From Thermodesulfovibrio sp. (GTDB lineage Bacteria > Nitrospirota > Thermodesulfovibrionia > UBA6902): DNA of 64,000 nucleotides. The stretch is from the NCBI GenBank assembly GCA_026982355.1, contig JALSHG010000012.1, positions 30,579-94,578 of the forward strand. Direction: 5' to 3'. This document shows positions 6,227-63,365 of this stretch, piece after piece. The translations under genes were made by a program, and so were the position numbers. Each line of letters begins with the position of its first letter. Positions within the stretch are counted from its first letter, which is position 1. The notes beneath the pieces are model-generated. The model saw only the letters and a program-made list of their open reading frames with translations, had not been told where the DNA came from and ran no database searches.

Positions 6227-8035
6227 TCAGTCGGTTTCCGTGATCTTTATGACCTGCCCCACGTATAACCGCGTGGATTTGAGGTTGTTGATCCGTTCAA
6301 GGGTCTTTGTGTTTGTATTGAATCTCCTGGCAATCAGCCAGAGCGAATCCCCCTTTTTGATACGGTACAGGCCGTCCGGCGGCAGACCCACCTTTGATGC
6401 GCGGAGGTTTCTGTATGAGACGCTGTAGGAGCTGTCCCTCAGGGGTATTTTCAGTTTCTGGCCCACCCGGATGAAATGTTTGCGCCGTATATCGTTGGCC
6501 ATGATTATCTTCCTGACGGTCGTGCGGTATTTCATGGCTATAAGCGACAGTGTCTCGCCTTTCTTGACCCTGTGGTATACATATGCGTTCTCCGGAGGAG
6601 CCCAGCCGGGTATCTCCTCGAGCTTTGCAAGCAGCACCTCGGTCATGCCTGCAGGCACCTTGAGCGCATACGGCGTGGCCGGCGTCACCTGATAACGCAG
6701 CTCGGGATTCAGTTCCCTGAGCACTTTCAGAGGGATGCCCAGTTCCCCGGCCACCGTCTTCAGGAGAACCGGTTTTTCGATGGTTACGGATTCATACAGT
6801 ACCGGCGGATCCGGCTCTCCCAGTTTGAATCCGTATTTTTCCGGGTCTTTCAGGATGTGCAGGGTTGCCAGGAATTTCGGGACATACCGCGCGGTCTCCC
6901 GTGGAAGCTCCCTGTACAGGTCCCAGAAGTTGTCGAGGTAATTGATCCTCTGATTGCGGATCGTCCTCAGGACGGTCCCTTCCCCGCAGTTGTAACCCGC
7001 AAGCACAGTTGTCCAGTCTCCGAAGATATTGTGCAGCTCTTTCAGGTAGGCGATGGCGGCCCTGGTCGATTTTTCGGGGTCCAGCCTTTCGTCGACCCAC
7101 GTGTCCCTCTTCAGGCCGAACTTCGAGCCCGTGGAGGAAATGAACTGCCACAGGCCCAGGGCGCGTGCGCGGGACATGGCCCTGACCTTGAAGCCGCTCT
7201 CTATCAGGGGCAGCCAGGCAAGGTCCTCGGGCAGGCCGGCCTCTTTCAGGGCGGCCACTATCATATTCATGTATCTTCCGGAGCGCTTGTACGACTCCAG
7301 GAAAAACCTGCGGTCCGGCCCCTGGAACCTTTTAATCTCCTTTGCCACGTGCTCATTCATTGTCAGGGGAATCTCGTTATGGTTCCCGTTGACCGCCGTG
7401 TACCGCGAGGCGTATATCTCCAGGATCCTCTTTGAAATCATGAAGCGCAGGTCTTCCTTCTGCTGGATCAGTTCGGGATATTCGTTGATATCAACCTGAA
7501 GGACAAGGGCGTATGCCTGGTCCAGCATCTCTATGGCCTTCTCAAGGTTGCCCTCGGACCAGAACTCCTGGGCCGCATTGCTATAGTCCAGGGCCGCATC
7601 AAGGAGGTTCTGCTCCTTTCCCGTGTCCTCCGTGTCATCATAGAATCCCACATCCTGGATTTTCTCCACGGGGATGTTTTCCGTGTTTCCGGCATCCGGC
7701 GCTGCCCGGACCGTCTCCATGTCCGTCTCATCGACCGGTTCATTGTCATTGCCGCCGGCGTTGCAGTCCGCACAGGCTTTATCATTTTCATCGGTTGGAT
7801 TTACATCCGCAGCCTCGCTTTTTTCTTCCGGTTCCGGTTCTTTCATTTGTTCGCTGCGGGGTTCCGCCTTCACGTCCGGGGCATCTTCATTCCCCTCAAC
7901 CATTATGGCAGGCGGAGCGGCGGCTTCGGGCGGCCTGTTTATCCGGAAGTTGCCAAGGAGTGTGTTGGGAAGGCTGCAGCCGAACGCCAGGACGGAAAGC
8001 AGCAGGACCACGTATCTGAAATCAAGCATATTCAT
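6227..8035 (-). CDS. mltD: Membrane-bound lytic murein transglycosylase D-like (SLT domain plus two C-terminal LysM domains) with long acidic N-terminal low-complexity region
   Basis: 602 aa; lipoprotein-like signal (LAFGC); SLT motifs LPLIESGF, GLWQF, AGYNCGEG; LysM repeats YHRVKKGETLSLIA and YRIKKGDSLWLIA. Confidence 0.8.
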   Translation of the reverse strand: MNMLDFRYVVLLLSVLAFGCSLPNTLLGNFRINRPPEAAAPPAIMVEGNEDAPDVKAEPRSEQMKEPEPEEKSEAADVNPTDENDKACADCNAGGNDNEPVDETDMETVRAAPDAGNTENIPVEKIQDVGFYDDTEDTGKEQNLLDAALDYSNAAQEFWSEGNLEKAIEMLDQAYALVLQVDINEYPELIQQKEDLRFMISKRILEIYASRYTAVNGNHNEIPLTMNEHVAKEIKRFQGPDRRFFLESYKRSGRYMNMIVAALKEAGLPEDLAWLPLIESGFKVRAMSRARALGLWQFISSTGSKFGLKRDTWVDERLDPEKSTRAAIAYLKELHNIFGDWTTVLAGYNCGEGTVLRTIRNQRINYLDNFWDLYRELPRETARYVPKFLATLHILKDPEKYGFKLGEPDPPVLYESVTIEKPVLLKTVAGELGIPLKVLRELNPELRYQVTPATPYALKVPAGMTEVLLAKLEEIPGWAPPENAYVYHRVKKGETLSLIAMKYRTTVRKIIMANDIRRKHFIRVGQKLKIPLRDSSYSVSYRNLRASKVGLPPDGLYRIKKGDSLWLIARRFNTNTKTLERINNLKSTRLYVGQVIKITETD

Positions 8036-10525: not shown

Positions 10526-10725
10526 CTGAAGCTGCTCCTTGTAAATCCCCCTTGCCCTTTGATAGAGACAAGGGGGGGGACTGCCGGTTTATCCTGACTG
10601 TCTCAACGGTTAATTTTATCGGCGCTCTTCCGCCAAACCTTTATCATTACCTTACACTGGCATAAAAATACGCCTGCGCGGGGCAGGGGAGTGCGGCGGA
10701 GGTTTTAAGGCGGTCTCTCCTGCCT

Positions 10726-10748
10726 GTTTATGCAACATCAAGGTTTAG
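10726..10748. repeat. Half copy (GTTTATGCAACATCAAGGTTTAG)
   Basis: topA upstream region; extended similarity to the core (GGCAGGAGAGACCGCC) on the other strand. Confidence 0.65.
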
Positions 10749-13049: not shown

Positions 13050-13240
13050 CTCTCATACGTCCCTTTCAGAACCGGCAGTCATGTATTGAAATCAAAGAGG
13101 TTTGCAACGGCGCAGGGCGTATTGCACGCTTCCGCCCGTCAAGCCGGATTTATAAACATATCACAAGTGTTTCGGAAATGTAAAACAGGGGGATGATACA
13201 AATCCGGAGATCAACGTTTGAAGGAAGGGGCGGGCCCTCC

Positions 13241-13279
13241 CGCCCGCAGGCGGTGTTTTTATGCAACTGTAAGGTTTAC
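13241..13279. repeat. Half copy (GCAGGCGGTGTTTTTATGCAACTGTAAGGTTTAC), almost identical to the arm at 46903
   Basis: Between argG start and nrdJ stop. Confidence 0.7.
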
Positions 13280-15534: not shown

Positions 15535-15569
15535 AAAATAGTCCTCCCTCTCAGTGCAGCTTATCCCGG

Positions 15570-15610
15570 CAGTTGCATAAGGGTATCTCCGCTCCTTTTA
15601 TGCAACGTGC
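15570..15610. repeat. Copy of the element (CAGTTGCATAAGGG...TTTTATGCAACGTGC) in the nrdJ upstream region
   Basis: Inverted GTTGCATAA / TTATGCAAC arms. Confidence 0.7.
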
Positions 15611-15725
15611 AAAATTATATTTGCAGAATTATTAAGCTTATTAAAAGTTTTAATAACCGGTTCCCCCCGCAGCCTGCCGTTCGATTGAACTATCCCCCTC
15701 CATGTAGATGAGATATGAAATTAAA

Positions 15726-17100: not shown

Positions 17101-17121
17101 TGAATATTACTATACCTGACG

Positions 17122-17169
17122 GATGCATCAAAATACCGCCTGCGGGCGGTATTTTTTGCAACTGCACGG
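17122..17169. repeat. Hairpin-form copy (GATGCATCAAAATACCGCCTGCGGGCGGTATTTTTTGCAACTGCACGG) in MFS/copB divergent region; second partial arm at 17263-17288
   Basis: Near-perfect 19-bp inverted repeat around TGCG loop. Confidence 0.7.
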
Positions 17170-17202
17170 TCAGAGACGTCATAATGTCGCAGGGCACGGT
17201 TT

Positions 17203-19626: not shown

Positions 19627-19909
19627 CCTTCGTAATGGTAACGGGTATATTATTGCTTTTAGAGCCTCCTGCAAAAGTCCTCCGTCAGTCACATCGAGCG
19701 GAGAGAGGGGTCTTATAACTCATCGATGCCGAAAGATTTCCTCCTTTGGTCGAGATGACATATACAGGCATTTTCATACTTTTGCAAGAGGCTCCGGTGT
19801 TAAAGTCTTTCAACGATTTGCCGTAGAAACAAGATGAACTTTATGTTATATAAGACGGGGGCTGCCGGCAATATTCCGATGTGACCGCAAAGAGGAGAAA
19901 GGAAGCATT

Positions 19910-20674: not shown

Positions 20675-20898
20675 GGTTAATCTTAATGTTGCGTTAAATT
20701 GCTGGCAGCAGGGAGGTGGACCTGCCGGAAAAGCTTTTACCTGTAACTCCCTCGGCGAGTACTTTGCGGGGCATACCGGCGCCGCTCCGGAACTCACACG
20801 CGGTAAATCTCTCCCGCATTCACTCGGCTCTTGATATCCATCGCATTGCACTGGTGTTACGGCAGGCTCAACCGCCCTGTTTTATGCAATATCTGACG
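20675..20898. repeat. Possible longer (~220 bp) MITE-like variant bounded by AATCTTAATGTTGCGTTAAA (20678-20697) and TTTTATGCAATATCTGACGG (20879-20898); internal segment resembles the family core
   Basis: Inverted terminal arms about 180 bp apart upstream of lipA; internal CAGCAGGGAGGTGGACCTGCCGGAAAAGC resembles core of copy at 26800. Confidence 0.4.
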
Positions 20899-20912
20899 GA
20901 GTCGGTTTTTTT

Positions 20913-24599: not shown

Positions 24600-25399
24600 T
24601 GGAATTCACGGAAGAACAGTTAAAGAGATACAGCAGGCATATAATCCTGCCCGAAGTGGGCGGCAAGGGACAGAAGAAGATTTCAGGGGCGAAGGTCCTC
24701 ATAGTCGGCGCAGGCGGACTGGGCTGCCCCGCGGGGTATTATCTTGCGGCGGCCGGGGTCGGCACCCTGGCAATCGTGGATAACGACACCGTGGAGCTCA
24801 GCAACCTGCAGAGGCAGATAGCACACAGTGTAAAGACACTCAATGTCAACAAGGCCGAGTCGGCCAAACAGACCTTTGAGGCGCTGAACCCCGACGTCAA
24901 CGTGATCGCGGTAAAGGAAAGGATAAACAGCAGGAACATCCTTAACCTTATAAGGGATTATGATATTATTGTGGACGGCACGGACAATTTTCCCACGAGA
25001 TACCTGATCAATGATGCATGCGTAATGCTCCGCAAGCCGCTCGTCAGCGGGGCCATTCTCAGGTTCGAGGGGCAGGTGACCGCCATACTGCCCGGTGAGG
25101 GGCCTTGCTACCGCTGTCTGTTTGAAGAACCGCCTCCGCCCGGGCTTGTTCCTTCATGCCAGGAGGCCGGAGTGCTCGGAGTTCTTCCCGGTGTTATCGG
25201 GGCATTGCAGGCAACCGAGGTGCTTAAACTGATCCTCGGGAAGGGCCTGCCCTTAAAGGGCAGTCTGCTGATATATGACGCCCTCGGGGTGAATTTCAGG
25301 AAGGTAAAAATACCCAGGAACGATAACTGCCCTGTATGCGGTAAAAACCCCCGCATTAAAGAGCTGAGCGACCTTCCGGAAGAGTACTGCTCGATATAA
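24599..25399 (+). CDS. ThiF/MoeB/MoeZ-family E1-like adenylyltransferase for sulfur-carrier proteins
   Basis: 266 aa; LIVGAGGLGCPAGYYLAAAGVG nucleotide motif; C-terminal CxxC...CxxC zinc site (CYRC, CPVC). Confidence 0.85.
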   Translation: MEFTEEQLKRYSRHIILPEVGGKGQKKISGAKVLIVGAGGLGCPAGYYLAAAGVGTLAIVDNDTVELSNLQRQIAHSVKTLNVNKAESAKQTFEALNPDVNVIAVKERINSRNILNLIRDYDIIVDGTDNFPTRYLINDACVMLRKPLVSGAILRFEGQVTAILPGEGPCYRCLFEEPPPPGLVPSCQEAGVLGVLPGVIGALQATEVLKLILGKGLPLKGSLLIYDALGVNFRKVKIPRNDNCPVCGKNPRIKELSDLPEEYCSI

Positions 25400-25426
25400 A
25401 CCTTAATGTTGCATAAAACCACCGCC
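25399..25426. repeat. Half copy (AACCTTAATGTTGCATAAAACCACCGCC) abutting the moeB/thiF stop codon
   Basis: Direct reading. Confidence 0.7.
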
Positions 25427-26778: not shown

Positions 26779-26782
26779 GATA

Positions 26783-26880
26783 ACCTTAATGTGGTGGCAT
26801 CCACGTGCAGAGGAGTCTGCCGGAAAACCTGCCGCACACTCCTCTGCTCCGCCGCCGGTATTTCATGCAACTGTAAGGAC
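26783..26880. repeat. Full-length copy of a dispersed palindromic intergenic element (arms AACCTTAATGTGGTGGCAT / ATGCAACTGTAAGG; inner inverted repeat GCAGAGGAGT / ACTCCTCTGC)
   Basis: Direct reading; arms are reverse complements; same family as copies listed below. Confidence 0.8.
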
Positions 26881-26906
26881 TCAAAATTTTTCAAGGAGGA
26901 AGATAA

Positions 26907-27444: not shown

Positions 27445-28512
27445 ATGCGACCATGGTACGGACTGATTGACCAGTACAGGGATTTCCTCCCCGTATCCGG
27501 GAAAACACCGGTTGTTACCCTGAATGAAGGCAACACCCCTCTTATAAGGGCATCCCGCCTGAACGAGGTTCTTGAGGAAGAGATAAATCTTTATTTTAAA
27601 TACGAGGGGTCCAATCCCAGCGGTTCATTCAAGGACCGCGGCATGACGCTGGCGATCTCAAAGGCGGTTGAAGACGGCGCAAGGGCCGTCATATGCGCAT
27701 CAACAGGCAATACATCCGCCTCCGCATCGGCCTATTCGGCAAAGGCCGGCATAGGCGCCATTGTCCTTATCCCCGAGGGCAAGATAGCCCTGGGCAAGCT
27801 CGCCCAGGCACTGATACACGGGGCAATGGTGCTGCAGGTTGAAGGCAATTTCGACGATGCATTGAGGATTGTCAAGGAGCTTGTGGAAAAACATCCCTTT
27901 GCCCTTGTCAATTCCCTGAACCCGTTCAGGATAGAGGGCCAGAAGACAGCGGCCTTCGAGATATGCGACCAACTGGGCGCAGCGCCTGATTACCATGTCC
28001 TCCCTGTAGGCAATGCCGGCAACATCACGGCATACTGGAAGGGGTACAGGGAGTACCGTGAGGCCGGCAGGACCGCTTCCCTGCCGAAGATGCTCGGATT
28101 TCAGGCCGCCGGGGCCGCGCCTATAGTAAAGGGCAGGCCGGTGGAACGCCCGGAGACAGTGGCCACTGCCATAAGGATCGGGAACCCCGCAAGCTGGAAG
28201 GGGGCCATTGCCGCAAGGGATGAATCAGGAGGGCTTATAGAATCCGTCACCGATGAAGAAATTATCAATGCCTACAAACTGATAGCTTCAAGGGAAGGTA
28301 TCTTCTGCGAGCCTGCATCCGCCGCCACACTGGCCGGCGTGATAAAACTCTCAAAACGTAATTTTTTTTCGAAAGGCGACACGGTTGTCTGCACACTTAC
28401 AGGCAATGGACTGAAAGACTCCGACAGCGCCCTTAAGTTATCCGCGCCTCCTGTAAAGGTAAAGGCCGAGATAACGGCCGTTGAGGAACTGCTGAAGGGC
28501 TGCTGCCTGTAA
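27445..28512 (+). CDS. thrC: Threonine synthase
   Basis: 355 aa short-type ThrC; GSNPSGSFKDRG PLP motif. Confidence 0.9.
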   Translation: MRPWYGLIDQYRDFLPVSGKTPVVTLNEGNTPLIRASRLNEVLEEEINLYFKYEGSNPSGSFKDRGMTLAISKAVEDGARAVICASTGNTSASASAYSAKAGIGAIVLIPEGKIALGKLAQALIHGAMVLQVEGNFDDALRIVKELVEKHPFALVNSLNPFRIEGQKTAAFEICDQLGAAPDYHVLPVGNAGNITAYWKGYREYREAGRTASLPKMLGFQAAGAAPIVKGRPVERPETVATAIRIGNPASWKGAIAARDESGGLIESVTDEEIINAYKLIASREGIFCEPASAATLAGVIKLSKRNFFSKGDTVVCTLTGNGLKDSDSALKLSAPPVKVKAEITAVEELLKGCCL

Positions 28513-28520
28513 CGGCTGCA

Positions 28521-28835
28521 TCATTTCCCCAACTCATGCAGTGCGAGCTCCTGCAGCCTGGACAGCAACGGGCGCAGCGACGCGGGCACGTCGGCATCAT
28601 CAAGCGAAAGCGATATCTCCCTGCCGCCTTCAGAAAGTGAAAGCCTGTAGTTCAGGGCATCGGGACGGGCGGCCGGTTCCCGTGGGGGCCTGTCAGGCCT
28701 CATGTCAAAGACGCCCGAGCTTTTCACGAGGGACAGGAGTTCGTCCCCGACCTTTTCGGGAAGCTTACCGGTATCCGCATGATACGAGAGCCGTAAACCT
28801 GCATATCCCCCTGAACACTCAAAGTCTATAAGCAT
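28521..28835 (-). CDS. Hypothetical small protein downstream of and co-oriented with the M4 protease; candidate emfourin-like protease inhibitor (positional inference)
   Basis: 104 aa, no signal peptide, 52 bp after protease stop; protealysin-like proteases are typically followed by the ~100 aa inhibitor emfourin. Confidence 0.35.
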   Translation of the reverse strand: MLIDFECSGGYAGLRLSYHADTGKLPEKVGDELLSLVKSSGVFDMRPDRPPREPAARPDALNYRLSLSEGGREISLSLDDADVPASLRPLLSRLQELALHELGK

Positions 28836-28887
28836 GTTTTCAGGCTGACTGAGCAGCCTCCGAGAGGCTGCTCAGGATTTCAATTTG

Positions 28888-29964
28888 TCAACGGGGCAGC
28901 CCCACGGCTTTAAATGCCGCACGCACTGTCTGGACCGAACCCGCGGGCGCCTGTCCGCTCTTGACAAGCAGCCGTGCCGATTCGACAATCACCTCGACCG
29001 CGTCATTGAAGGCAGCGGTGCTCCATAGTCTCTGCAGCGCCGTGTACCATATCAGCGCAGCCTTGTCAGTGCCGAGGGTATCGGTTGCCGCGAGGTAAAA
29101 CGCCCTGTTGAGGATACCGCTGTTGATATGAACGCCCTGGTTGTCCTTGGGGCCTGAATAGTAATCCTTCATGTGGTCCGGCTGGTGGTCCTTGCCCATG
29201 AGTTTGTTGTCGTATGCCGTGCCGGGCGCCTTCATGGAGCGAAGCGCTTCCCCGTAAAGGTCGGGTCCCATAATCTCGTCACCGATGAGCCAGTCCGCAT
29301 CATGGGCGGTCTGCCCCTTTTTATACTGTGTTATCACGGAGCCGAAGACATCAGAGAAGTGTTCATTCAACGCCCCCGACTGGCTGTGGTACTTCAGGTT
29401 CGCCGTAAACTGCGTAACCCCGTGGGTCAGTTCATGCGCCACCACGTCGAGGGAGCGCGCAAAGCTGACGAATATCCTGCCGTCTCCGTCACCGAAGGTC
29501 ATCTCGTCGCCGTCCCAAAAGGCGTTCATGTATTTCGTCCCGTAGTGGACGTTGAAGAGCAGGTTCATCCCGAGGTTGTCCACGGAATTCCTGTTCAGAA
29601 CGTTCCTGTAGTAATCGCGCACGGCGCCGGCATACTCGTAGGCCTCGTTCACCGCGTCATCGGAGGTTACGGGGTCGCCTTCGCCCCTTGCCAGATCAAC
29701 CCGTTGTTTCCACTGGTTTTTGCAGTTGTAAACCTGCCGGGACGCCGTGCCCGCGGGCGCGGTCGTGACGCCCGTAAACGCCTCCATGCCGATTTCCTTT
29801 GCACTCCTCTTCACGCGGCTCAGCTCGCTCTGCTGAATGCTCACCCTTGCCTCATCAACCCCGGCCCTCGCCAGGTTTTCCAGCACATCGGGTGGGATGT
29901 ACATGCAGTTGCACCTGTGAATAAACATGCTGTCCTCCTTTTTTGATTGTTTCCGGTTTTGCAT
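28888..29964 (-). CDS. M4 (thermolysin-family) zinc metalloprotease, protealysin-like (no signal peptide, short propeptide)
   Basis: 358 aa; HELTHGV (HExxH) and NEHFSDVFG (third zinc ligand) motifs; N-terminal propeptide with PPDVL motif. Confidence 0.85.
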   Translation of the reverse strand: MQNRKQSKKEDSMFIHRCNCMYIPPDVLENLARAGVDEARVSIQQSELSRVKRSAKEIGMEAFTGVTTAPAGTASRQVYNCKNQWKQRVDLARGEGDPVTSDDAVNEAYEYAGAVRDYYRNVLNRNSVDNLGMNLLFNVHYGTKYMNAFWDGDEMTFGDGDGRIFVSFARSLDVVAHELTHGVTQFTANLKYHSQSGALNEHFSDVFGSVITQYKKGQTAHDADWLIGDEIMGPDLYGEALRSMKAPGTAYDNKLMGKDHQPDHMKDYYSGPKDNQGVHINSGILNRAFYLAATDTLGTDKAALIWYTALQRLWSTAAFNDAVEVIVESARLLVKSGQAPAGSVQTVRAAFKAVGLPR

Positions 29965-29994
29965 ATTCAGAACATCCGGTTTTATAAATGATTC

Positions 29995-30036
29995 CCGGCG
30001 GACTCCCCTGCACGTTTATGCCACATTAAGGTTAAC
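29995..30036. repeat. Half copy with core (CCGGCGGACTCCCCTGCACGTTTATGCCACATTAAGGTTAAC)
   Basis: Between M4 protease start and yihY stop. Confidence 0.7.
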
Positions 30037-31403: not shown

Positions 31404-31450
31404 TCTGCATACAATTCTATCATACCCGGCGGCGGAGATCTGTCATTCCG

Positions 31451-31474
31451 GCTTGTGCAACATTAAGGTTACGG
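31451..31474. repeat. Half copy (GCTTGTGCAACATTAAGGTTACGG)
   Basis: Upstream of yihY. Confidence 0.6.
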
Positions 31475-31961
31475 CTGTCTTATATCCCTCAAAGTATGCC
31501 TCTATATACCCGTGCCCCCACAGCCTTCGGCTCTTGCAGCCTTCTTTCAGACAGTTCGGCGGCCTCGGAAACGGGTATCTCCGCCCGAGCCTGATTATCT
31601 CCTTGAAATAAAGTACGAAAAAAAGCGACAATATCTTACACCTTGCCCGAAGCTGTGGAGGTCCTTCGTCAGACAGACGTTTCTCTCCACGCTTCGGGTT
31701 CCTTTCTTTGTTTTCTGCTCCGGTTATTTTAATCTGAATGGCTTTTTATTCGGGCCGGTTTATTTTGAATGATTTGCCGCTTTCGGGGTCGGTTTAATCT
31801 GCAAAACAACAGCGTGTTACTATGAAAATAACCTTTCAGAACTATCTTATAGAGCTTTGCCCGGGTTCGACGATCGTAGTAAAACAAATACAGGCCCGGG
31901 CATGCTAACGACCGAATTCAGCGGCGGCTATTCGCCGTCCGCTGGAATGAGTGGTTAGGTT

Positions 31962-32174
31962 TCATGCATATATCAACCTCTCTCCCTTAGGTTCAGGGAT
32001 AGGATCTCCAAACTCCTTTGCAGTATCGATCCATAACTGAATAGCATCTTGAACATTTTTTATCGCTTCTTCATAAGTCTTTCCATGTGCCGTACACCCA
32101 GGGAGTTCAGGGACTTCTGCGATAAAAGCATCGTCCTCTCTGCTCCAGTAGATTATAATTTCATATTTGTACAT
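31962..32174 (-). CDS. hicB: HicB-family antitoxin (UPF0150)
   Basis: 70 aa; ...PELPGCTAHGKTYEEAIKNVQDAI motif. Confidence 0.7.
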   Translation of the reverse strand: MYKYEIIIYWSREDDAFIAEVPELPGCTAHGKTYEEAIKNVQDAIQLWIDTAKEFGDPIPEPKGERLIYA

Positions 32175-32425
32175 TATCTGCCTCCAAGTTTATATTTAAC
32201 AATTATGTTTCTTACCTGCTTCACCTGATAAGGTTTTGCTTTATTACCTTCTCGTTGCAGATTAATCTTTTCTACTATGCCGTCCTTTCTGAATATATGA
32301 TGGCTACCTCTAACCCTCATTTCAAAGCCTAATTTCTCAAGCAAATTGCACAAATCTTCAAACTTGATATTGGCATCTGATGTGCCACTCAATATCTGCA
32401 GAATCAGTTTTTCATATTTACCCAT
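32174..32425 (-). CDS. hicA: HicA-family mRNA interferase toxin
   Basis: 83 aa; GSHHIF motif; stop overlaps hicB start (ATGA). Confidence 0.75.
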   Translation of the reverse strand: MGKYEKLILQILSGTSDANIKFEDLCNLLEKLGFEMRVRGSHHIFRKDGIVEKINLQREGNKAKPYQVKQVRNIIVKYKLGGR

Positions 32426-32437
32426 TTTTTTATTTTA

Positions 32438-32827
32438 TCATAACGGCTTTACCGCAAGCATCTCGTTTCCACCTCTCTGAAACTCATACTCAACTGGTAA
32501 AATCTCCACTGAATAGCCTTGTTGCTTAAGGAGATTCGATACTGAACATAGATGCCGTGACTTTATAGAACCGAGTTCAAGAACCTGAAAAACGGCACCG
32601 CTTGCGAGGATCTGCCTCAACTCCAGGCCGGGCGGAAGGGTCTCGTAGAAAATCCTCTTCACGTCGGGGTGTATCTCCCGGAATCTTGACAGGAGGTCGT
32701 CCATGACCATGAACTGGTTGCCGGCCATAAAAAGGACAAGGCCGGCGCTGTCCATATACTGCATATTGTGGATGTCGTCACCGCGGGAAGAAGGGATTTC
32801 GGGCATACTGCCGTCTCTGTCTTTCAT
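32438..32827 (-). CDS. Hypothetical protein at 3' end of nuo operon (start uncertain)
   Basis: 129 aa ORF, no recognisable motif, co-oriented between nuoN and hicA. Confidence 0.35.
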   Translation of the reverse strand: MKDRDGSMPEIPSSRGDDIHNMQYMDSAGLVLFMAGNQFMVMDDLLSRFREIHPDVKRIFYETLPPGLELRQILASGAVFQVLELGSIKSRHLCSVSNLLKQQGYSVEILPVEYEFQRGGNEMLAVKPL

Positions 32828-32944
32828 GAATCATTCACTCCTGCAATGCATGCCCGGACACGGAAAAGATTTTCCGTGCCGTTGGATGCTTCCCGTATAC
32901 GGGAAGGAAAAAAAGGCGCCGCAACAATCGGCTGCGGCCGGGAA

Positions 32945-34402
32945 TTACAGGAGACCGGGGATCGAAAATTTGACCAGATCGAGCAGAACCGACGGAAACA
33001 CACCTATAACGAGTATCATCACTGCGGTGACCGCAAGCGCGAAATTCATGGACGGCGAGGTGGCAAGGGCCACTTCCTCCCTCGGGTCCCTCATGTACAT
33101 GTACATTACAACCCGGAGGTAGAAGAACGCGGAAATCACACTGAACACCACCGCTATAACCGCCAGGTATGTATAGCCCGCATCGATCACCTCCATGAAC
33201 ACGTAGAACTTCCCTATGAACCCGGCCGTGGGCGGAATGCCCGTCAGCGCGAACATGAACACAAGCATGAGTGCAGAGGCCACGGGATGGCTCTTCGCAA
33301 GGCCCATGTAGTCATCGAGGTTCTCGCCCTGGAAGCCTTCCCTCCTGAGCATTATCACCACTGCAAAGGCGCCGATGTTCATGATTGCGTATATCATCAG
33401 ATAATTGGCGGTGCTCGCAAGTCCCCCGGGGGTGCCTGCTATTATTCCGAGGAGCATGTATCCCGCGTGGGCGATTGAGCTGTAGGCAAGCATCCTCTTT
33501 ATGTTCGTCTGCGCAAGTGCTATGATGCTTCCGGTTGCCATGGTAATAACGGCCAGCGGTATCAGGATGCTGTCCCACTGTATCTGCATGGCCCCGAATG
33601 CGCTGAACAGGACCCGTCCCAGGACCGCAAATCCCGCGGCCTTCGGCCCCACCGACATAAACGCCGTCACAGACGTCGGCGCGCCCTCATACACGTCGGG
33701 CGCCCACATGTGAAACGGCGCCAGGGCGATCTTGAATCCGAAGGCGACTATCATGAATATCAGACCCAGCAACACCATGGGGTTGCCCGTGATGTTCAGC
33801 GTCTGCAGTGAGGCGGCGATATCCTTCAGGTTCGTGGTGCCTGTCAGCCCGTATGTAAGGGAAATGCCGTAGAGGAAAAAGGCCGATGAAAAGGCGCCGA
33901 GGAAGAAGTACTTCAGGGCCGCTTCGTTCGAGCGGGGCTGTTTTCTCATCATGCCCGCAAGTATATAAGTGGAAAGCGCCATCAGCTCAAGGCCGAGATA
34001 AAGGACTATAAGATCCGAGGCCGAAGCCATTATCATCATGCCTGTCGTGGCAAAGATCAGAAGCGCATAGTATTCTCCGAAGGACGCCTTCTCTATAACC
34101 ATGTACCTGAGGGAAATGCAGATCGTCAGTATGACGTTGAGATAAAATATAAGCCTGAAAAAGTTGGAGTATCCATCCAGCACGAACATGTCCGAAAAGA
34201 CCGTCAGCGGTTCGCTGAAACCGTAAAGCCTGAGGGTTCCGTACAGCGCCACGAGGGTACCGGCAATGCCGACCACCGCGACAACCTCCTTCTTTTTCAC
34301 GATAAGATCAAGCAGCAAGAGTATTAAGGCAGTGCATATCATCGTAAGCTCGGGCACTATAGGCCGGATGCTGAGTAAACTGAATCCGCTTGACATATCC
34401 AT
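32945..34402 (-). CDS. nuoN: NADH-quinone oxidoreductase subunit N
   Basis: 485 aa polytopic antiporter-like subunit, last gene of nuoA-N. Confidence 0.9.
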   Translation of the reverse strand: MDMSSGFSLLSIRPIVPELTMICTALILLLLDLIVKKKEVVAVVGIAGTLVALYGTLRLYGFSEPLTVFSDMFVLDGYSNFFRLIFYLNVILTICISLRYMVIEKASFGEYYALLIFATTGMMIMASASDLIVLYLGLELMALSTYILAGMMRKQPRSNEAALKYFFLGAFSSAFFLYGISLTYGLTGTTNLKDIAASLQTLNITGNPMVLLGLIFMIVAFGFKIALAPFHMWAPDVYEGAPTSVTAFMSVGPKAAGFAVLGRVLFSAFGAMQIQWDSILIPLAVITMATGSIIALAQTNIKRMLAYSSIAHAGYMLLGIIAGTPGGLASTANYLMIYAIMNIGAFAVVIMLRREGFQGENLDDYMGLAKSHPVASALMLVFMFALTGIPPTAGFIGKFYVFMEVIDAGYTYLAVIAVVFSVISAFFYLRVVMYMYMRDPREEVALATSPSMNFALAVTAVMILVIGVFPSVLLDLVKFSIPGLL

Positions 34403-45657: not shown

Positions 45658-46881
45658 TTACCTGTCACATTCTCCCAGAACGATATCAATGCTTCCGATG
45701 TTTGCGATTACGTCCGCAACCAGTTCGCCCTCGCATATGGCGGGCAACGCCGAAATATGCACAAAGGACGGTGATCTTATCCTCATCCTGTACGGCCTTC
45801 CCGTCCCGTCACTGACGAAAAAGAAACCCAGTTCTCCCTTGGGAACCTCGGTCGCAACATAAAGCTCGCCCTCCGGCGCGGTCTGGGGCCCTTTTGTGAT
45901 AAGCACGAAGTGGTGTATGAGATGCTCCATGTCGCTGAGCACCTTGTCCTTTGCAGGCAGGGTGAACTTGGGCGCGTCGGCCATTATGGGCCCTTTGGGT
46001 ATCTTTTCGATACACTGCCTGATAATTGAATTGGACTCGCGGAATTCATCCATCCTCACGCGGTAACGGTCGTATATGTCGCCGTTCTTACCTATGCACA
46101 CCTGCCACTTGACCTTGTCGTAGACCCCGTAGGATGAAATTTTCCGTATATCGTAGGAAACGCCCGACCCCCTCAGCGCCGGGCCGCTCAGGCCCCAGTT
46201 GATGGCGTCTTCAGCGGAGATTACGCCGACACCCTTTGTGCGGCGCAGCCATATGCGGTTTTTGTCTATCAGGGTCTCATACTGCTCCACCCTGCCCGGG
46301 AATTCCTCGGTAAACTTGTAAAGGTCTTCCAGCCACTGGTCGTCCACATCGTTTTTCAGGCCGCCGATTCTCGGGTAGCTCACCGTGAGCCTTGCGCCGC
46401 AGAGCCTCTCGAATAAATCAAGGATTTTTTCCCTCTCCCTGAAACAGTACAGGAACACCGTCATTGCGCCTATATCAAGTGCATGGGTTGCAAGCCAGAG
46501 GAGGTGGTTTGTTATGCGGGCCATCTCCCCGACAATGGTCCTTATGTATTCCGTCCTTTCCGGGACCTTTATGCCGAAGAGCTTCTCCACCGCCACGCAG
46601 TAGCCTATGTTGTTGGCCATGGAGGCGATGTAATCAAGGCGGTCCGTGAGCGGTATTATCTGCATGTAGTTCCTGTTCTCCGCGAGCTTCTCAACCCCCC
46701 TGTGCAGATAACCGACATACGGGGTGCACTTGACAATGGTTTCACCGCTCAGGTCGAGCACCAGCCTCAGGACACCGTGCGTGGCAGGGTGCTGGGGCCC
46801 CATGCTGAGAGTCAGCTCTTTTTCGGACAGGCGTGCGTCGCTGTCCGCTGCATCAACCTCTTTACCGCTGATGTTTTCCAT
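45658..46881 (-). CDS. nuoD: NADH-quinone oxidoreductase subunit D (49 kDa)
   Basis: 407 aa; separate from nuoC (unfused). Confidence 0.92.
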
Positions 46882-46902
46882 AATGACCGAAATTTCAGTT
46901 CG

Positions 46903-46956
46903 CCTTACAGTTGCATAAAAACACCGCCTGCCGGCTTATGCAACATCAAGGTTTTA
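46903..46956. repeat. Copy of the element (CCTTACAGTTGCATAAAAACACCGCCTGCCGGCTTATGCAACATCAAGG) inside the nuo operon, in the 100-bp nuoC-nuoD gap
   Basis: Palindromic arms TTGCATAAAAAC / GCTTATGCAA; 22 bp upstream of nuoD ATG. Confidence 0.8.
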
Positions 46957-46981: not shown

Positions 46982-47514
46982 TCAAGATTGAATATTCCAC
47001 TCTTTATCATGGGAATGCAAATCCTTGAGCTCTTCGAAACCCTTGTACTCCCAGCCCTCCGGGCCTTTCAGGGGATAATCCTTTCTTAACGGATAGCCCT
47101 CCCAGTCTTCCGGCATAAGTATCCGCCTCAGATCCGGATGGCCGCTGAAGACTATGCCGTACATGTCGCAGGCCTCCCTCTCATGCCAGTTTGCGCCCTT
47201 CCATACGGGAACAACCGAATCAACCGACGGGTCGCTCTCGGGCAACTGCACCTTGAGCATGAGCCTGTGCTTGAATTTTATGGAATAGAGATTATACACC
47301 ACCTCGAAACGGAGTCTCCTGCCGGGGTAATCCACACCGCACAGGTCCGCCAGGTAATTCATCCGGATGTCCGGCGCGTCATGGAGATAGCGGCATATGT
47401 CGACGATCTTCTCCCGTTTGACGGTCACGAAGACCTGATCCCTGAACTGCTTCACATCAACGATTTCGTCTGAAAACTTCCCTTTAAGCCTCTCGACTAT
47501 CTCCAGGGGCTCCA
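46982..47514 (-). CDS. nuoC: NADH-quinone oxidoreductase subunit C (30 kDa)
   Basis: Start taken at [10 protein letters not shown] with AAAGGAG RBS; longer ORF extension overlaps nuoB and is rejected. Confidence 0.88.
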
Positions 47515-48015
47515 TCTGAAATGCTCCTTTTGTATTTTCTCCTGAAGTTTCATTACGCCGTCCATCAACGCCTCGGGTCTCGGGGGGCACCCGGGCACAT
47601 AGACATCCACGGGCAGAAATGTATCGCACCCCTGAACGACCCCGTAGGTATTGTATATATTTCCGGAGCAAGCGCAACTGCCCATCGCGATCACATACCG
47701 GGGTTCGGGCATCTGGTCGTAAACCCTCCGCACCACCGGCGCCATCTTCTTTGTTACGGTGCCCGCGATAATAATGACGTCCGACTGCCTGGGGGACGCG
47801 CGGAATATAACGCCGAAACGGTCAAAGTCATAATGGCTTGCACCTGAGGCCATCATTTCAATTGCACAGCAGGCGAGACCGAAGGTCATGGGCCAGAGCG
47901 AGTTTTTCCTGCCCCAGTTTATGACATTGTCCAGGGTGGTTATAAACATGTTGGTACCCGGCACGACCTTTGTGCCTTTCTCTACTTCAACCAATGTCGC
48001 ACTGTCCTTCACCAT
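47497..48015 (-). CDS. nuoB: NADH-quinone oxidoreductase subunit B (N2 4Fe-4S)
   Basis: 172 aa; CCxxE...GSCACSG...PGCPP cluster motifs. Confidence 0.93.
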
Positions 48016-51450: not shown

Positions 51451-51493
51451 ACCTTAACCTTAATGCGGCGTAAACGCGCAGAGGAGTCATGCC
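51449..51493. repeat. Half copy with core (AACCTTAACCTTAATGCGGCGTAAACGCGCAGAGGAGTC); its GAGGAG supplies the RBS of the downstream DRTGG gene
   Basis: Direct reading. Confidence 0.65.
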
Positions 51494-51835: not shown

Positions 51836-51958
51836 GGGAAACCGTTCAACGGTGTGGTTTTGCCCGCCTGTCCCGGCCCGTAAATCACCGGCGCCTTGTT
51901 GGGTCTGATTAATTGCTTCAGATCGTATATGCGTTTAATCATAAATTATCTTTCTTAA

Positions 51959-59031: not shown

Positions 59032-59066
59032 AACACATTGATTTGCTGTCCTGAAATCGGATAGTA

Positions 59067-59138
59067 TAACCTTAAAGTTGCATAAACGGGCAGGGGAGTC
59101 CGCCGGTATTTTATGCAGACGCAGGGTAAGGTTAAGGA
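59067..59138. repeat. Full-length copy of the same element (AACCTTAAAGTTGCATAAACGGGCAGGGGAGTCCGCCGGTATTTTATGCAGACGCAGGGTAAGGTT)
   Basis: Inverted terminal arms plus conserved GCAGGGGAGTCCGCCGG core, between gatC and panD. Confidence 0.8.
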
Positions 59139-59183
59139 TGAATTTGATTATTGGATTGGATTATTGGATGTTGAGAGGAGTTT

Positions 59184-63277: not shown

Positions 63278-63298
63278 TATGTGGATTTACTATAAGTT

Positions 63299-63346
63299 GC
63301 CTTAATGTTGCACAAGCGGGCGATGTTTTTATGCAACTGCAAGGTG
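63299..63346. repeat. Copy of the element (GCCTTAATGTTGCACAAGCGGGCGATGTTTTTATGCAACTGCAAGG)
   Basis: Between rpmE terminator and DUF1385 gene. Confidence 0.75.
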
Positions 63347-63365
63347 TATTCAAGGAGATGAACAA

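Follow-up and report, generated by a model that had tools for sequence, protein, structure and literature searches.

The Correia elements of Neisseria (CREE or NEMIS) are small and non-coding, end in terminal inverted repeats (TIRs), duplicate their target site and occur as hundreds of intergenic copies, in full and internally deleted classes, that in many cases are co-transcribed and form long RNA hairpins (PMC3049150, PMC10969869). Here we describe a family of intergenic repeats in 64,000 nucleotides of Thermodesulfovibrio sp. DNA (Nitrospirota, Thermodesulfovibrionia; GenBank assembly GCA_026982355.1, contig JALSHG010000012.1, positions 30,579 to 94,578; the whole stretch is referred to as the window), in which an earlier note had flagged a palindromic copy at 26783-26880. 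The family shares with Correia elements its TIRs, target-site duplication, intergenic copies, long RNA hairpins and internally deleted size classes. Correia elements, however, have TIRs of ~26 bp and duplicate the 2 bp TA, whereas the repeats described here have a 4-bp T(T/A)AA duplication, an unrelated TIR sequence and a Nitrospirota host. We know of no report of a strict orientation relative to transcription for Correia elements. The repeats are a MITE (miniature inverted-repeat transposable element) rather than REP units, and it is likely that they represent a non-autonomous DNA transposon family of Thermodesulfovibrionia-type Nitrospirota whose copies have been filtered for orientation by selection on their survival.

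Other described repeats share parts of this pattern. The ERIC/IRU repeats of enterobacteria and Yersinia are described as imperfect palindromes in transcribed intergenic regions, among them sites within operons and sites near stop codons, and their effect on upstream mRNA depends on orientation, with RNase E cleavage in one orientation (cited in PMC3049150). This effect is the best precedent for the orientation filter proposed here. ERIC copies are found in both orientations, whereas ~93% of the Nitrospirota copies are co-oriented with transcription; the sequence and the length of the duplication also differ. Chunjie, a MITE from Geobacter uraniireducens, as portrayed in the section of PMC10969869 devoted to it, is ~178-235 bp long, has TIRs and direct repeats, and occurs in dozens of full and partial intergenic copies, one of which lies within an operon that is not destroyed. 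The Nitrospirota copies between nuoC and nuoD and in the ThiF-PALP-ThiS cluster are similar in this respect; the sequence family and the host are different, and that section describes no orientation rule for Chunjie. Orientation is not mentioned in this 2024 review of prokaryotic MITEs (PMC10969869). The pneumococcal BOX, RUP and SPRITE repeats are thought to be mobilised in trans by insertion sequence (IS) transposases and are transcribed with their neighbours, SPRITE being terminator-like (PMC3049150). According to Table 1 of PMC3049150, a significant excess of them lies between convergent genes, in contrast to the Nitrospirota copies, which occupy tandem, convergent and divergent spacers in background proportions. 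Like REP/BIME and REPIN sequences, the family consists of high-copy intergenic palindromes forming mRNA hairpins. REP and REPIN units, however, are not known to carry long TIRs or to duplicate their target site, and variable 4-nt duplications are not known from IS200/IS605-type mechanisms, whereas the Nitrospirota family has 17-bp TIRs and a statistically clear 4-bp duplication. A search of the available literature found no paper with this sequence in this context or on MITEs in Nitrospirae; the family is previously undescribed, while the element type itself is known.

The repeats are far more frequent in the window than in shuffled sequence. TTGCATAAA was present in 8 copies (0.40 expected; 8 was reached by no shuffle), the 19-mer AACCTTAATGTTGCATAAA with up to three mismatches in 9 (0.02 expected), and a GC-rich motif, again with up to three mismatches, in 5 (0.37 expected). 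When the window was scanned with a position-weight matrix built from family copies, 19 arm matches were found, against ~0.4 in shuffles; 17 of the 19 correspond to sites that the earlier note had listed and are intergenic, while the remaining two are weak, within genes and chance-like. All 13 of the sites listed there (numbered E1 to E13 along the window) are true members of one repeat family, and all are intergenic, the position-weight scan having found no convincing copy inside a gene. One entry of the list is amended: the centres given as 20687/20888 mark opposite ends of a single long-form copy, which is 224 bp long and diverged. The high density proposed for the family, 13 copies in 64 kb or about one per 5 kb, is upheld and lies inside the span of densities reported for the Correia, REP and REPIN families.

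The family is also not confined to this region, since copies are dispersed over many contigs of related genomes. Among the matches listed, the exact 19-mer occurs on more than 60 contigs of the metagenome-assembled genome (MAG) JAADFS01, as well as in at least 14 other species-level MAGs whose labels are Nitrospirota, Nitrospirae or Thermodesulfovibrionales and which come from groundwater, subsurface, hydrothermal and other sources. The window itself belongs to contig k141_132766 of ENA ERZ27262642. Copies were present in addition in 112 metagenome stretches, which served as an independent data set. Single 19-mer matches in Psychromonas, a Flavobacteriaceae MAG, a Clostridia MAG and a phage contig were dismissed as chance-like, the phage match lying inside a coding region; a viral scan gave a single chance match, inside a phage gene, and blastn of plasmids gave no match. 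JAADFS01, the closest MAG to the window, is labelled 'Deferribacteres bacterium M_MaxBin.054'. This label is probably a misassignment, because the element family and ~92% identity are shared with a lineage otherwise labelled Nitrospirota/Thermodesulfovibrionales. Single real copies were also seen in Deltaproteobacteria/Desulfobacteria bins (L014, L069), the contigs of which may be mis-binned.

The anatomy of the element was defined by aligning 191 copies from the window and related genomes. The outer boundary of conservation is sharp, falling at the 5' end between T(T/A)AA and CC, and the copies have in common a 21-mer, T(T/A)AACCTTAATGTTGCATAAA, followed by a G-rich, partly conserved stretch. 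The TIRs are 17 bp long and imperfect (left, CCTTAATGTTGCATAAA; right, ...TTTATGCCACTGTAAGG); written in degenerate form, the right end is TTTATGC[CA]ACTGTAAGG. Inside the TIRs are longer complementary subterminal arms, each bearing a GGCAG-N6-CTGCC palindrome. It is this subterminal palindrome, found in both arms, to which GCAGGGGAGTCCGCCGG belongs, and not the centre of the element as had been supposed. The left and right arms differ consistently at three positions (AAT/ACA and TTG/TGG), and an additional 11-12 nt separate the palindrome from the TIR in the right arm; the element therefore has a defined polarity.

Copies fall into size classes of ~53, 69, 97 and 218 bp, of which 218 bp is the commonest and 69 bp the canonical short unit, so that lengths including the flanks cluster near 73 and 222 bp. 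There are further variants of 130-250 bp with a different G-rich centre, giving an overall range of ~45-250 bp, and solo ends and truncated copies occur often, solo left arms numbering 121. The element has no coding capacity, as indels between copies are not multiples of three and ORF (open reading frame) conservation is absent; a small ORF from the TAATG of the left arm was discarded, its frame not being conserved. The long form makes a 59-pair hairpin, with 97% of cells paired, and helix 1 of the consensus structure is 95.7% paired. Covariation of the arms strongly supports the hairpin: in the subterminal helix we counted 34 double-change cells, where shuffles gave 10.3 +/- 3.1 and slid controls 1-5. 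Folding of full copies, which had been proposed as a check, gave stable hairpins (z -2 to -3.7). The short consensus folds at -27.8 and -26.9 kcal/mol in the two directions, which differ only in the side that bears the 11-nt bulge. In short forms the loop of the internal GGCAGG…CCTGCC hairpin is found in both orientations relative to the arms, GAGAGC or GCTCTC (for example, L036 2826-2890 and L042 4079-4143), an inversion of the type seen in template-switching palindromes.

The four bases outside the CC…GG ends are direct repeats and constitute a statistically clear 4-bp duplication of AT-rich target sites. Among the 83 full copies of the first data set, 29 had identical flanking 4-mers (mean 10 and maximum 21 over 10,000 permutations), with 20 identical non-palindromic flanks against 0 reverse-complement ones; examples are TAAA/TAAA, TTTA/TTTA, ATAA/ATAA, ATAC/ATAC and GTTA/GTTA. 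The independent metagenome set gave identical flanks in 43 of 99 copies (permutation mean 16, maximum 29), including 25 that were non-palindromic, against 1 reverse-complement pair, bringing the pooled count to 45 against 1. This result bears directly on whether the repeats could be REP/REPIN palindromes moved by a REP-associated tyrosine transposase (RAYT, of the HUH Y1 type) acting on single-stranded hairpins. Such a process would suit palindromic, intergenic, high-copy units that form hairpin doublets, and single-strand mechanisms could in principle create a strand bias. We nevertheless regard it as highly improbable: the duplication of variable 4-mers at the ends argues against a RAYT-type single-strand mechanism, the ends are 17-bp TIRs instead of a short conserved tetranucleotide head, Pfam matched neither Y1_Tnp nor another transposase among the ~50 window proteins, no multi-copy transposase-like gene lies near the repeats, and orientation follows transcription, not replication. 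An earlier suggestion that a RAYT-like transposase targets the repeats is not supported, in view of the first and third of these points. The broader idea of a REP/MITE-like mobile family at high density is borne out by the TIRs, the 4-bp duplication, the size classes, insertion polymorphism and genome-wide dispersal in related genomes, and the family has every testable defining feature of a MITE apart from an identified autonomous partner. A DNA uptake sequence (DUS/USS) or an operator was also considered and rejected, in view of the variable spacing, the lack of in-gene copies, the duplication, the strong orientation bias, the absence of conservation at orthologous sites and the place of the motif as the end of a longer element.

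Genomes that are 92-96% identical differ in the presence or absence of copies. In the main ortholog comparison, with JAADFS01 (~92% nucleotide identity; genes 94-99% identical at the protein level), E10 was missing from the orthologous nuoC-nuoD spacer of locus L081, although the flanks are 96% identical, and synteny with the window breaks at two copies. At a second locus, L024, the site of E7 is occupied by a 248-bp long form and that of E8 by a decayed remnant only, while at E9 synteny stops and L024 has an oppositely oriented copy at the same point. Other MAG pairs revealed further gain and loss of copies at orthologous spacers. A 99%-identical strain sampled elsewhere has kept E12, which differs there by one substitution, and a contig of a further sample begins and finishes inside two copies, as expected of a repeat. 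The L081 site corresponding to E11 contains another AT-rich palindromic repeat and the same AGGAGTCATGCCATG. Since the relative has AGGAGTCATGCCATG without this element, the proposal that E11 supplies a ribosome-binding site at 51481-51486 is probably wrong. The repeat in question (L081 5835-5950, orthologous to window 51451-51480) is made of CAATTATCAATGAA-like units and their inverse, and looks like a second intergenic repeat family of the lineage. A copy at L036 870-930 / L079 7635-7692 lies directly downstream of an apparent tRNA 3' end (GGTTCGAGTCC…CCA); this copy and ~30 nt of adjacent sequence are absent from the orthologous site in another MAG.

These comparisons are also relevant to the possibility that the repeats are a host-useful RNA or DNA module acting in cis (a leaky terminator or attenuator, a 3' mRNA-stabilising hairpin or a site bound by a nucleoid or RNA-binding protein) that was spread by transposition and is kept by selection. 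A role of this kind would fit with copies that are co-transcribed, co-oriented and often start at a stop codon, with their stable hairpins, with the hairpin and U-run found on the sense strand of about half of full copies, and with the conservation of the GGCAG-N6-CTGCC palindrome through compensatory changes. We judge it very unlikely all the same, as individual copies are absent, decayed, replaced or inverted at orthologous sites in genomes this similar, solo and truncated ends are common, one copy sits within the nuo operon, where a terminator would harm, and structure is equally good on both strands. Rfam 15 yielded no gathering-score match in the window, with chance-level matches only (E >= 0.29) on two long-form copies; a described RNA family was rejected for this reason.

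The polarity of the element follows the direction of transcription. Direction was assigned by arm type and then, independently, by strand-specific nhmmer profiles, and was compared with the flanking genes. Of the copies between same-strand gene pairs, 173 point left-to-right along the direction of transcription and 13 the opposite way (p = 7e-37), so that ~93% are co-oriented, and in tight spacers essentially all are. By arm type, the ratio of co-oriented to antisense full copies was 21:0 for the short, near-symmetrical 69-bp form and 19:0 for the long form. The earlier description of copies in both orientations is thus true of the genome strands, but it missed the main point, namely the co-orientation with transcription. 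Co-oriented full copies have median spacers of 19-42 nt, lying at a median of 19-30 nt from the upstream stop codon and ~40 nt from the next start, with around one fifth overlapping the stop codon, whereas for most antisense copies the distance exceeds 100 nt on one side or both. Within the window, direction flips with each of four alternating gene blocks. Because these flips occur within 64 kb, orientation tracks transcription and not replication, which rules out a replication-strand bias. The window contains two antisense exceptions, the right-half remnant E2 (13225-13278) and the diverged long copy E5 (20677-20900).

That exceptions concentrate in long spacers favours a selection filter acting on the read-through transcript. 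Alternatively, insertion itself might be oriented, if the transposition machinery were to read the direction of transcription, for instance from the transcription bubble, from R-loops, from RNA polymerase or from target asymmetry. The extremity of the bias in both the 69-bp and the long form would be explained in this way, the duplications are asymmetric (read in element direction, TAAA 22 vs TTTA 4, with 128:76 in the element-free spacer background), and an orientation-specific harmful or useful feature was looked for and not found. Oriented insertion seems to us quite unlikely, however, given that the exceptions are distributed as a selection filter predicts, that copies at palindromic TTAA targets are equally co-oriented and that flanking motif conservation is absent; we also know of no DDE transposon that senses the direction of transcription. 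More generally, it is unlikely that co-orientation reflects either an insertion machinery that senses transcription direction or the domestication of the element as a directional operon-spacer module, instead of a passive survival filter. If the element were domesticated, its left end, where two or three frames contain stop codons, would adjoin the stop of the upstream gene, and its right end would lie ~10-25 nt before the next ribosome-binding site.

Taken together, these data suggest the following model of an orientation-filtered MITE. A transposase supplied in trans, putatively of the DDE type, would bind the element ends and make 4-nt staggered cuts at AT-rich targets, T(T/A)AA in element orientation, and repair would duplicate the 4-mer. 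The ~97-, 69- and 53-bp forms and the solo ends would be internal-deletion and decay products of the ~218-bp form. Copies would insert into, or survive only in, intergenic spacers, often against a stop codon, and would be co-transcribed with their neighbours as long hairpins. Survival would then be filtered by direction, such that copies in tight operon-like spacers run left-to-right with transcription essentially always; the filter would presumably be selection on the read-through transcript, by way of an orientation-dependent effect on termination, processing or translation.

Several findings count against this model. Neither the window nor 1.39 Mb of further loci, drawn from fragmentary MAGs and contigs, yielded an autonomous element or a transposase bounded by these ends. 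The best empty site, that of E10, is without a clean duplication, its left end and flank being mutated, and since the junctions at empty sites are less than perfectly clean, support for the duplication is mainly statistical. Gene calls in the relatives' loci come from a codon-usage caller, not from annotation. Finally, terminators, RNA folding, skew and target asymmetry do not explain the polarity. If anything, hairpin-plus-U motifs are commoner on the sense strand; by a strict criterion a hairpin and U-run was found in 53% of short forms on the sense strand and in 18% on the antisense strand. The idea that antisense copies act as polar terminators is not supported, since the sense strand has these motifs more often or in stronger form, or, by a relaxed rule, the two strands are equal. 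The hairpins concerned are weak to moderate (median ~-8 kcal/mol), and the strongest one is set off from the U-run by the 11-12-nt bulge. Strand-specific RNA structure was rejected in turn, as the antisense long-form consensus folds at least as well (consensus folding -53.1 kcal/mol sense vs -60.7 antisense); what is constrained is therefore a palindrome at the DNA level or a symmetric recognition of the ends, not strand-specific RNA. An asymmetry of the Rho/rut type does not fit either, long forms being G-rich in sense (GC skew +0.14) and short forms near-unskewed (+0.05), yet equally co-oriented. Copies at TTAA targets are co-oriented 9:0, so the target 4-mer cannot set direction; with the TAAA excess mild and the flanks motif-free, an asymmetric target or flanking motif was discarded as the cause. 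Reading TTGCAT as part of a sigma-54 or sigma-70 promoter was ruled out by inspection, there being no -24 GG and no consistent -10.

In the search for a partner, TIR pairs 400-5000 bp apart enclosed ordinary genes only (helicase, ABC ATPase, radical SAM, MFS, rhodanese and flgD), and all-against-all protein comparison near the repeats identified no repeated transposase-like protein, the sole multi-copy family being sigma-54 activators. A 4-bp AT-rich duplication is, we presume, typical of the IS5 group, IS701 and IS1380, which we treat as candidate parents and as a lead only. At L141 10887-11740 (metagenome contig Ga0256839_1000483), a complete flgD (Pfam FlgD, FlgD_ig) lies between a long-form left half and a right TIR, and the 4-nt flanks of this unit are identical, if atypical (TGAA/TGAA). 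The unit may be a derivative that carries cargo, a product of recombination between two copies, or coincidental.

The gene map of the window was made with a codon-usage ORF caller and checked by Pfam for ~50 genes, with which it agreed. The genes are housekeeping ones, comprising an lpx cluster, topA, dprA, argG, nrd and hom, together with a TusA-ThiF-PALP-ThiS-NIL-PALP cluster, nuoA-N, glmU, glmS, pcrA/uvrD, gatC, panD and dnaG; no tRNA or tmRNA was found in the window. Divergent and co-oriented gene contexts had both been reported for the repeats and were both seen, the former once, at ~17112-17173; the convergent context reported with them does not occur in the window. E1 (10646-10747, minus strand), which measures 102 bp with its flanks, is a full copy in the spacer that separates two minus-strand genes, dprA and topA. 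Its left arm begins 5 nt past the dprA stop, its sense strand has a terminator-like hairpin and T-run at 10687-10673, and it was identified by position-weight matches at both arms and by nhmmer (minus, model positions 1-65, 42 bits), with Pfam for the genes. E2 (13225-13278, plus) is the right half of an element, antisense to the minus-strand genes argG and nrd; its flank overlaps the stop codon of nrd, its plus strand has the hairpin CCGCC-CGCA-GGCGG followed by TGTTTTTATG, and its basis is nhmmer (plus, model positions 16-65), a terminator scan and Pfam. E3 (15561-15617, with no strand assigned), between nrd and an MFS transporter gene, is a degenerate mini copy of 57 bp seen as two weak inverted position-weight arm matches and not detected by nhmmer. 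E4 (17112-17173, minus), a short and degenerate copy located where the MFS gene (minus) and a P-type ATPase gene (plus) diverge, has a position-weight match at 17153-17173 (minus) and an nhmmer match on the same strand (model positions 21-64). E5 (20677-20900, minus) is the diverged 224-bp long form, antisense to flanking plus-strand genes; it shares 131 identities with the long-form consensus on the minus strand against 105 on the plus, and nhmmer places it on the minus strand (model positions 6-213, 66.6 bits).

E6 (25397-25417, plus) is a solo left TIR with a perfect 19-mer (position-weight score 38.5), and its TAAA flank includes the stop codon of ThiF, as identified by Pfam. The flagged copy, E7 (26780-26882, plus), which had been described as a full hairpin unit, is a genuine copy, but the element proper spans 26784-26878 (95 bp), is of intermediate size and has a diverged left end. 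Its TIRs are CCTTAATGTGGTGGCAT on the left and TTTCATGCAACTGTAAGG on the right, its flanking 4-mers are ATAA/ACTC, and it lies 2 nt past the stop of a PALP (thrC-like) gene and 28 nt ahead of ThiS (Pfam for both); nhmmer matches it on the plus strand at model positions 1-65, and its RNA minimum free energy is -35.1 kcal/mol (z = -2.9). E8 (29966-30035, minus), 30 nt past the stop of a BrkB-family gene, is the left third of a long form, with TIR, GGCAG...CCGCC palindrome and AATCATTTATAAAACC (nhmmer, long-form model positions 1-69, minus). E9 (31452-31472, minus) is a solo left TIR with 19-mer and position-weight matches.

The position of E10 inside the nuo operon, as first proposed, was confirmed by Pfam: this mini copy (46899-46955, minus; 57 bp including flanks) lies between nuoC (46982-47677; Complex1_30kDa) and nuoD (45658-46881; Complex1_49kDa) and is co-oriented with the operon, as found by nhmmer (minus) and position-weight matches, with a fold of -20.3 kcal/mol (z = -3.7). 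E11 (51454-51486, plus), a truncated left end consisting of the TIR and GCAGAGGAGTC, extends into the ribosome-binding site of the next gene and was recognised by 19-mer and position-weight matches. E12 (59066-59135, plus), between gatC and panD, is a short copy with the element at 59070-59131 and flanks ATAA/TTAA, supported by 19-mer and position-weight matches, by nhmmer (plus) and, for its neighbours, by Pfam. E13 (63296-63348, plus) is a mini copy of 53 bp including flanks, upstream of a DUF1385 gene (position-weight matches; nhmmer plus, model positions 1-65).

Other features of the window were noted alongside the repeats. The region at 31404-32945 is gene-poor and variable, and synteny with the relative stops exactly at E9; it contains a HicA-toxin ORF (32174-32425, minus), an adjoining 71-aa ORF (31962-32174, minus) that is a possible antitoxin, and a 129-aa ORF (32438-32827) with no Pfam match. 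The ~115 bp at 51836-51951 (minus) hold only the N-terminus (MIKRIYDLKQLIRPNK...) of an ATPase-like gene, and are a deletion remnant, because the gene is intact (~1.25 kb) in L081 at ~6310-7560, beside a long-form element. Just downstream of E12, at 59141-59180, is a short tandem repeat, ATTTGATTATTGG / ATTGGATTATTGG, which differs by one 13-bp unit from the 99%-identical strain (L098). Two inverted structures are not members of the family. The first, at 28849-28875, is a perfect hairpin with a 12-bp stem (CTGAGCAGCCTC-CGA-GAGGCTGCTCAG) downstream of an M4 peptidase gene (28888-29964, minus) and before an emfourin-family ORF (28521-28835, minus; a call made on the source contig), the pair on which a plus-strand PALP gene (27445-28512) converges. 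The second, at 19662-19794 in the spacer past the P-type ATPase gene, is a 17-nt inverted repeat, GAGCCTCCTGCAAAAGT / ACTTTTGCAAGAGGCTC, with 94% complementary arms 99 nt apart.

The family is very abundant in an uncultured, environmentally widespread Thermodesulfovibrionia lineage. In practical terms, the element breaks assemblies, marks synteny breakpoints and can mislead the annotation of terminators, small RNAs and promoters. Strict transcriptional polarity has not been discussed for prokaryotic MITEs, and the hundreds of independent insertions make up a natural data set on the tolerance of transcribed hairpin elements inside operons. If the bias were mechanistic, it would be a new property of a DNA transposon; if the element were instead domesticated, it would represent a module that tunes read-through, mRNA processing or translational coupling across hundreds of Thermodesulfovibrionia operons.

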